A DNA stretch of 64,000 bases. Origin: Escherichia virus TH47. The stretch's first letter is position 1. Each line of letters begins with the position of its first letter. The stretch is taken from the sequence record MT446416.1, one strand, 5' to 3'. Position numbers and translations under genes: made by a program. The notes under the pieces are model-generated. The model was given only the letters and a program-made list of their open reading frames with translations, made no database searches and had not been told where the DNA came from. Positions 32,888-33,145 of the stretch are shown here, in pieces.

Positions 32888-33145
32888 CTAGAAATTATTT
32901 TCAATAGTTAAGTACATTGTTTCTGTAAAGAAACCATCTTCTTCCATTTCATCACCTGAAATAGATAAAGATTCAACCTTGTACTCACCAGATTCAATCC
33001 AGTTCTTAATTTGTTCACGATTACCTTTGTGTCGAACATCATACTAATGGATAGCTTCCAGTACTGTTCGATAATCGTTAATGCCAATTTTAGTTTTAGC
33101 GATTAATTCATCATCTGCATCGCTTTGAATCAAAAAATATGCCAT
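32888..33145 (-). pseudogene. gene interrupted by an in-frame amber (TAG) codon
   Basis: Frame reads MAYFLIQSDADDELIAKTKIGINDYRTVLEAIH-TAG-YDVRHKGNREQIKNWIESGEYKVESLSISGDEMEEDGFFTETMYLTIENNF; both halves look coding; TAG at 33044-33046. Confidence 0.35.

Follow-up and report, generated by a model that had tools for sequence, protein, structure and literature searches.

A small accessory gene of this phage has most probably been lost to a lineage-specific null allele, in which a C-to-G change turned the invariant Tyr34 codon of a small acidic protein into an amber codon (TAG). The allele is an ordinary one with no sign of unusual decoding, and amber nonsense is a kind of lesion already known. 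In alignments with relatives, the TAG is a derived change, private to this genome, in a gene that is otherwise intact. Release factor 1 would be expected to end translation at codon 34. The phage would tolerate losing this gene because it is accessory, and the downstream gene, keeping its own ribosome-binding site, would probably be unaffected.

Judged by its alignments, the window (the whole 64-kb stretch of DNA analysed here) is from a 121Q/PBECO4-type jumbo coliphage of the genus Asteriusvirus. The closest record, Ecwhy_1, is 97.2% identical across 83% of a 24-kb query. Translation of the minus strand from 33145 to 32888 gives a frame of 85 codons with one in-frame TAG at codon 34, that is, 33 sense codons, the TAG, 51 more sense codons and then a natural TAG stop at 32888..32890 (Table 1). 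The frame reads MAYFLIQSDADDELIAKTKIGINDYRTVLEAIH up to the amber codon and YDVRHKGNREQ...TIENNF from there to the natural stop. The original prediction had described a minus-strand frame broken by a single amber codon, with normal gene position and spacing; the translation made here agrees with it exactly, and the spacing is indeed normal, the ATG at 33145 standing 9 nt past the upstream stop with AGGAAA ahead of it. The upstream neighbour is an ORF of 61 codons with a TAG stop, and Ecwhy_1 carries the same bases at both the AGGAAA and this stop. On the other side, the next ORF (32664..32879) begins 8 nt past the natural stop of the interrupted gene and has its own AGGAA ribosome-binding site. 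A promoter and terminator scan around the gene gave counts not above those of shuffled sequence.

Table 1. Features of the interrupted gene and its surroundings, in window coordinates.
Feature	Coordinates	Strand	Evidence
Complete interrupted gene, 121Q gp134 orthologue	32888..33145	-	Translation, full-length PHROG match, intact 258-nt orthologues
N-terminal part, codons 1-33 (beta1, beta2, alpha1)	33047..33145	-	ORF list, model secondary structure
Premature amber codon TAG, codon 34; 4-nt signal TAGT	33044..33046	-	DNA alignments, stop context
Downstream remnant, codons 35-85, no further lesions	32891..33043	-	Translation, alignment, model
Patch of four window-private substitutions, 41 nt	33044..33084	-	Comparison with 17 relatives for private bases
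Shine-Dalgarno-like AGGAAA (33156..33151), sharing bases with the upstream ORF's TAG stop (33157..33155)	33151..33157	-	Read from sequence

With its stop repaired, the frame matches phrog_36713, a family of unknown function, over residues 1-85 on profile positions 1-85 (E 8.4e-57), and relatives are annotated at the same spot with an uninterrupted 258-nt CDS. The end-to-end match and the uninterrupted CDS together mark the frame as a real gene and not a chance one, and by sequence similarity its orthologue in Escherichia phage 121Q is gp134 (PHROG 36713). The protein is acidic (pI 4.4). A Pfam search with the stop-repaired protein returned nothing reaching threshold, and its single match, to FlgM (E 0.14; 12.9 bits, cutoff 25), was rejected as noise. 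The gene is intact in upwards of 30 phage records and some 20 public contigs. Matches to the family were obtained by tblastn in 37 phage records, comprising 34 records of Escherichia and Salmonella phages in the 121Q/PBECO4 group together with Erwinia phage Hallingskeid and two Serratia phages, and an exhaustive HMM search of 1.84 billion cluster representatives recovered only seven clusters, each of 80-90 residues save for one 33-residue entry identical to the truncated product of the window. The locus is conserved as well, lying between the tRNA-Asn/Met/Ser cluster and a gene for a 71-aa protein (121Q gp138 homologue), and the same neighbours are found in Ecwhy_1, PBECO4, A4, BF17, EC.P1 and public contigs. 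The window copy shares its locus, 85-codon length and natural TAG stop with 121Q gp134 (AIT14025.1) and PBECO4 AGC35063.1, to which it is 92-96% identical in amino acid sequence, but differs from both in having TAG for TAC at codon 34 and a private D21G substitution.

One C-to-G transversion on the coding strand, at window position 33044, separates the TAG from a tyrosine codon, TAC. The tyrosine codons TAC and TAT are classic one-step sources of amber codons. In DNA alignments, TAC stands opposite the window's TAG in Ecwhy_1, ECO103 4-12-1, PBECO4 and 121Q, and it also occupies codon 34 in eight public contigs that encode an identical downstream neighbour and in six that encode an identical upstream neighbour. 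No orthologue examined has a stop at codon 34; all read through it with tyrosine. Tyr34 is invariant across 14 database clusters, in Serratia phage WSPA (55% identity) and in the most distant clusters (37-52%), and it is one of 13 family-invariant columns, eight of the 12 others being downstream of the stop. Conservation is not confined to the N-terminal part: in a comparison of 12 different intact orthologues, codons 1-33 have a pN/pS of 0.12 and codons 35-85 one of 0.29, and by this measure both halves of the gene are under purifying selection in relatives. Neither of the two findings that the original prediction named as refuting it, orthologues that stop at the equivalent codon or weak conservation of the downstream segment, was obtained.

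The TAG does not stand alone. A scan of 17 relatives, covering 991 positions around the gene at which at least eight relatives are aligned, found four window-private bases in the local 1.1-kb region: 33044 (Y34stop), 33071 (synonymous at Y25), 33077 (the third base of codon 23) and 33084 (D21G, which hits a near-invariant residue of the family). All four fall inside 41 nt, and the 733 aligned positions that lie beyond the gene have none. A joint origin of the TAG and its three neighbouring private substitutions is probable, and the four changes may stem from one clustered event (a short conversion tract or an error-prone repair patch) or from relaxed constraint. The patch might conceivably mark a localised mutagenic or conversion process acting on the gene.

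Structure prediction suggests what the truncation would remove. AlphaFold2, run on a deeper alignment, gave one small alpha/beta domain (pLDDT 82.2, pTM 0.69) with beta1 at residues 2-9, beta2 at 14-20, alpha1 at 25-31, alpha2 at 40-52, beta3 at 60-62 and beta4 at 77-84; an earlier AlphaFold run on 14 close homologues was unusable (pLDDT 51.7). The modelled domain is assembled from strands at both termini, and codons 35-85 hold alpha2, beta3 and beta4 along with eight of the 13 family-invariant residues. Because the domain needs its C-terminal strands, the 33-residue peptide, which lacks alpha2, beta3 and beta4, should be non-functional. The only in-frame ATGs after the premature TAG are codons 67 and 77, so restart should yield no useful C-terminal product. 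Given that neither a suppressor tRNA in the window nor a usable in-frame restart codon was found, no full-length protein would be expected.

The window holds one other gene of this sort. A tblastn comparison of the window with every Ecwhy_1 ORF of at least 45 codons showed an in-frame stop in the window copy of just two annotated CDSs, the interrupted gp134 (TAG) and the orthologue of 121Q gp199 and Ecwhy1_561 (TAA). The latter gene (6888..7271, minus strand) encodes a conserved virion structural protein of 127 aa, and its premature TAA is codon 54 (7110..7112), a GAA-to-TAA change relative to Ecwhy_1, 121Q and Salmonella phage Munch, all of which have GAA. A Logan contig from an independent assembly, SRR13001969_243253, has the TAA too (99.70% identity, 3,642 nt, 11 mismatches), and this recurrence indicates that the gp199 allele is real and inherited and that true nonsense alleles are in circulation in the lineage. 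The literature search for run SRR13001969 came back empty. Codon 60 of the gene, a TTG, has been gene-called as the start of a 68-aa C-terminal ORF, and the interrupted gp199 gene may be working as two pieces or may be dispensable.

The frequency of such lesions was compared across 78 genes, 28.4 kb in all, whose orthologues in Ecwhy_1, EC.P1 and BF17 align without gaps. The private single-base codon changes of the window comprise 222 synonymous, 143 non-synonymous and 2 nonsense changes, against a random expectation of 20% synonymous, 75% non-synonymous and 5% nonsense. This signature of purifying selection indicates that the window's divergence is mostly real and not noise. Private nonsense accounts for 2 of 394 private changes in the window, 1 of 65 in Ecwhy_1, 1 of 81 in EC.P1 and 0 of 107 in BF17, and the window's rate is unexceptional against its sister genomes. 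The Ecwhy_1 case is a GAG-to-TAG change at codon 35 in the orthologue of window 27561..27926, and that of EC.P1 is a TGT-to-TGA change at codon 10 in the orthologue of window 7383..7859. Other broken accessory genes in Asteriusvirus are of the same kind as the window allele, and only the gene and the site differ. The Ecwhy_1 annotation contains several 'similar to...' pseudogene features. One private 'stop-loss' in the window, where all three of these relatives have an in-frame stop inside the window ORF, is probably a difference in start-site extension.

A sequencing or assembly artefact, with the phage truly carrying TAC and the G being a consensus error or the 41-nt stretch a mis-assembly or minor variant, is unlikely, though it deserves more weight than any form of altered decoding. 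The TAG allele occurs in no independent assembly in exact and degenerate DNA searches of three collections: an exact 28-mer containing the TAG had no match in viral, metagenome or genome contigs, and a degenerate 23-mer around it had none in viral contigs. Three metagenome matches to the degenerate 23-mer were dismissed as chance, since their GC is 47-55% and the sequence around the pattern is not homologous. In public data the 33-residue product is recorded once, on an NCBI contig of 352,450 bp that appears to be the source of the window itself. Exact protein searches of a contig index with the 33-residue product, the two flanking HNH proteins and the intein-bearing methylase gave no match, and the cluster table places all of these proteins on that one contig. 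The window's other nonsense codon, however, the TAA of gp199, is independently confirmed, and substitution errors are rare in a high-coverage short-read consensus, which counts against an artefact here. The crowding of four private changes into 41 nt could mark a local assembly problem, yet two or three of them alter a third base synonymously or conservatively, a pattern that points to evolved divergence more than to random error. Evident errors do exist in some records of the group, the frameshifted CMSTMSU copy being an example, whereas the window has no frameshift-split genes relative to Ecwhy_1.

Amber suppression would keep the full-length product, whether through a host tRNA of the supE/supF type, a phage tRNA outside the window or programmed readthrough, and is improbable in any of these forms. 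Suppressors of the supE/supF type are common in laboratory K-12 strains and amber alleles can persist on suppressor hosts, and the 51 codons downstream of the TAG are fully intact; the second interrupted gene, however, carries TAA, which an amber suppressor could not read, and the internal stop signal is TAGT, a following pyrimidine reportedly (Bossi 1983) being a poor context for suppression. A programmed readthrough site is disfavoured by the absence of a stop at codon 34 from every orthologue. The tRNA scan covered 64 kb of a genome of about 352 kb, and within those 64 kb no tRNA with a CUA anticodon was found by ARAGORN, in standard and intron-tolerant modes, or with Rfam. ARAGORN reports four tRNAs in the window, Thr(tgt), Asn(gtt), Ser(gct) and Arg(tct), to which the intron-tolerant scan adds an intron-split Met(CAT), and none has the CUA anticodon, in keeping with the original prediction that the three tRNAs it could fold are not suppressors. 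In Ecwhy_1, EC.P1 and BF17 the corresponding cluster encodes tRNAs for Thr, Asn, Met and Ser alone, with no suppressor among them. The genomes of fEgEco12 (6 tRNAs; PMC13070987) and Sharanji (7 tRNAs; PMC11895373) likewise have all their tRNAs in the homologous cluster and none is a suppressor. Stop usage among 134 greedy ORFs is TAA 81, TGA 43 and TAG 10. TAG thus terminates at least 10 ORFs, counting the interrupted gene and its upstream neighbour, both of whose stops are shared by relatives, and the earlier claim that TAG is a true stop elsewhere is borne out, for instance by the ORF at 5624..6808 (minus strand). An ochre suppressor (UUA, reading TAA and TAG) was rejected, TAA being the main terminator (81 of 134) and no such tRNA having been found. 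Reassignment of TAG, genome-wide or in late genes, is barely credible. In the recoded crAss-like and Lak phages, in-frame TAGs are numerous, a suppressor tRNA is encoded and genes avoid ending in TAG; the window shows none of these three features and resembles those phages only in having an in-frame TAG in an otherwise intact gene. That TAG is the only one in frame among the Ecwhy_1-homologous genes in the 64 kb, and relatives have TAC at codon 34. The original prediction had likewise judged genome-wide recoding unlikely, and the use of TAG as a terminator, the lack of a CUA tRNA in the window and the single in-frame TAG all agree with it. It had also proposed a recent nonsense pseudogene, a sequencing error or suppression; the nonsense null allele is the favoured reading among these, but 'recent' is not established. 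The TAG lies inside a cluster of four private substitutions that includes D21G at a near-invariant residue.

The tRNA cluster (32001..37097) differs in repertoire from that of the closest relatives. Its Arg(tct), at 37024..37097, is missing from Ecwhy_1 and BF17, which carry a Ser(tga) and have Thr(tgt) twice, against once in the window. In EC.P1 and 121Q, Ser(act) takes the place of the window's Ser(gct). The tRNA-Met(CAT) gene (34173..34479, minus strand) is split in its anticodon loop by a 230-nt group I intron (34211..34440) that matches Rfam Intron_gpI at 100.5 bits (E 7.5e-25), with a 5' exon ending in U and an intron ending in G. Splicing in silico yields a 76-nt tRNA-Met with an initiator-like C1xA72 end, orthologous to the uninterrupted tRNA-Met of Ecwhy_1, BF17, EC.P1 and 121Q. 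Standard ARAGORN misses the split gene, which is also present and unannotated in Turkey5 (99.4%) and in the Klebsiella jumbo phages Muenster, KP13-7, RCIP0023 and phiKp_21 (about 89%). Nothing specific on group I introns in jumbo-phage tRNA genes turned up in a literature search.

The tRNA cluster also contains two free-standing HNH-type ORFs that Ecwhy_1 lacks at the same spots. One, of 234 aa (33450..34154, minus strand), sits between the intron-split tRNA-Met and tRNA-Asn and has an HNH-like motif with no Pfam match; the stretches of Turkey5, RaK2 and K64-1 that match it are annotated as an HNH endonuclease beside tRNA-Asn. The other, of 135 aa (31553..31960, minus strand), adjoins tRNA-Thr and matches Pfam HNH (E 2e-4). 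Elsewhere in the window, a C5 cytosine DNA methylase (47438..49327, minus strand) is encoded by a 629-aa ORF with an intein of about 343 aa, at about 48068..49096. The intein carries a LAGLIDADG endonuclease domain (Hint_2, E 1e-9; LAGLIDADG_3, E 3.8e-7; both above Pfam cutoffs) and its insertion point directly precedes the catalytic Cys of the PCQ motif (GGFP|C...VHN|CQSWS). The methylase orthologues of Ecwhy_1, EC.P1 and BF17 (861 nt) lack the intein, and NCBI E. coli assemblies contain similar proteins of 629 aa that bear just the name 'DNA cytosine methyltransferase'.

A natural knockout of the gp134-family gene is plausible because other phages lack the copy or carry a damaged one. No copy was found by tblastn in the Asteriusvirus-like JNE01 and Turkey5, though both carry gp199. 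In the Salmonella phages SD-6_S16 and SD-2_S15, a deletion replaces the last approximately 14 residues and overlaps the next gene, and the CMSTMSU copy, which comes from an UNVERIFIED_ORG record, has a frameshift after codon 4. These comparisons make it plausible that the gene is dispensable. The null allele resembles the classical amber (UAG) mutants of T4 and lambda, in which a single-base change inside a phage gene leaves an N-terminal fragment when no suppressor tRNA is present. Whereas those mutants affect essential genes and were selected on suppressor hosts, the window allele is a natural one in what is probably a dispensable gene, with no evidence of a suppressor host or tRNA.

Read as a null allele, the locus is best annotated as a disrupted 121Q gp134-family gene, and neither as a 33-codon ORF nor as evidence of recoding. 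Were the TAG suppressed by the host or by a phage tRNA outside the window, it would instead be a natural conditional amber allele and not a dead gene. If the allele is real, it provides one natural knockout suggesting that the small acidic protein is dispensable for propagation. Taken with the confirmed TAA of gp199, the TAG suggests that nonsense alleles segregate at a low but measurable rate in Asteriusvirus genomes; across the four genomes in the comparison, about 0.5-1.5% of the codon changes private to a lineage are nonsense.
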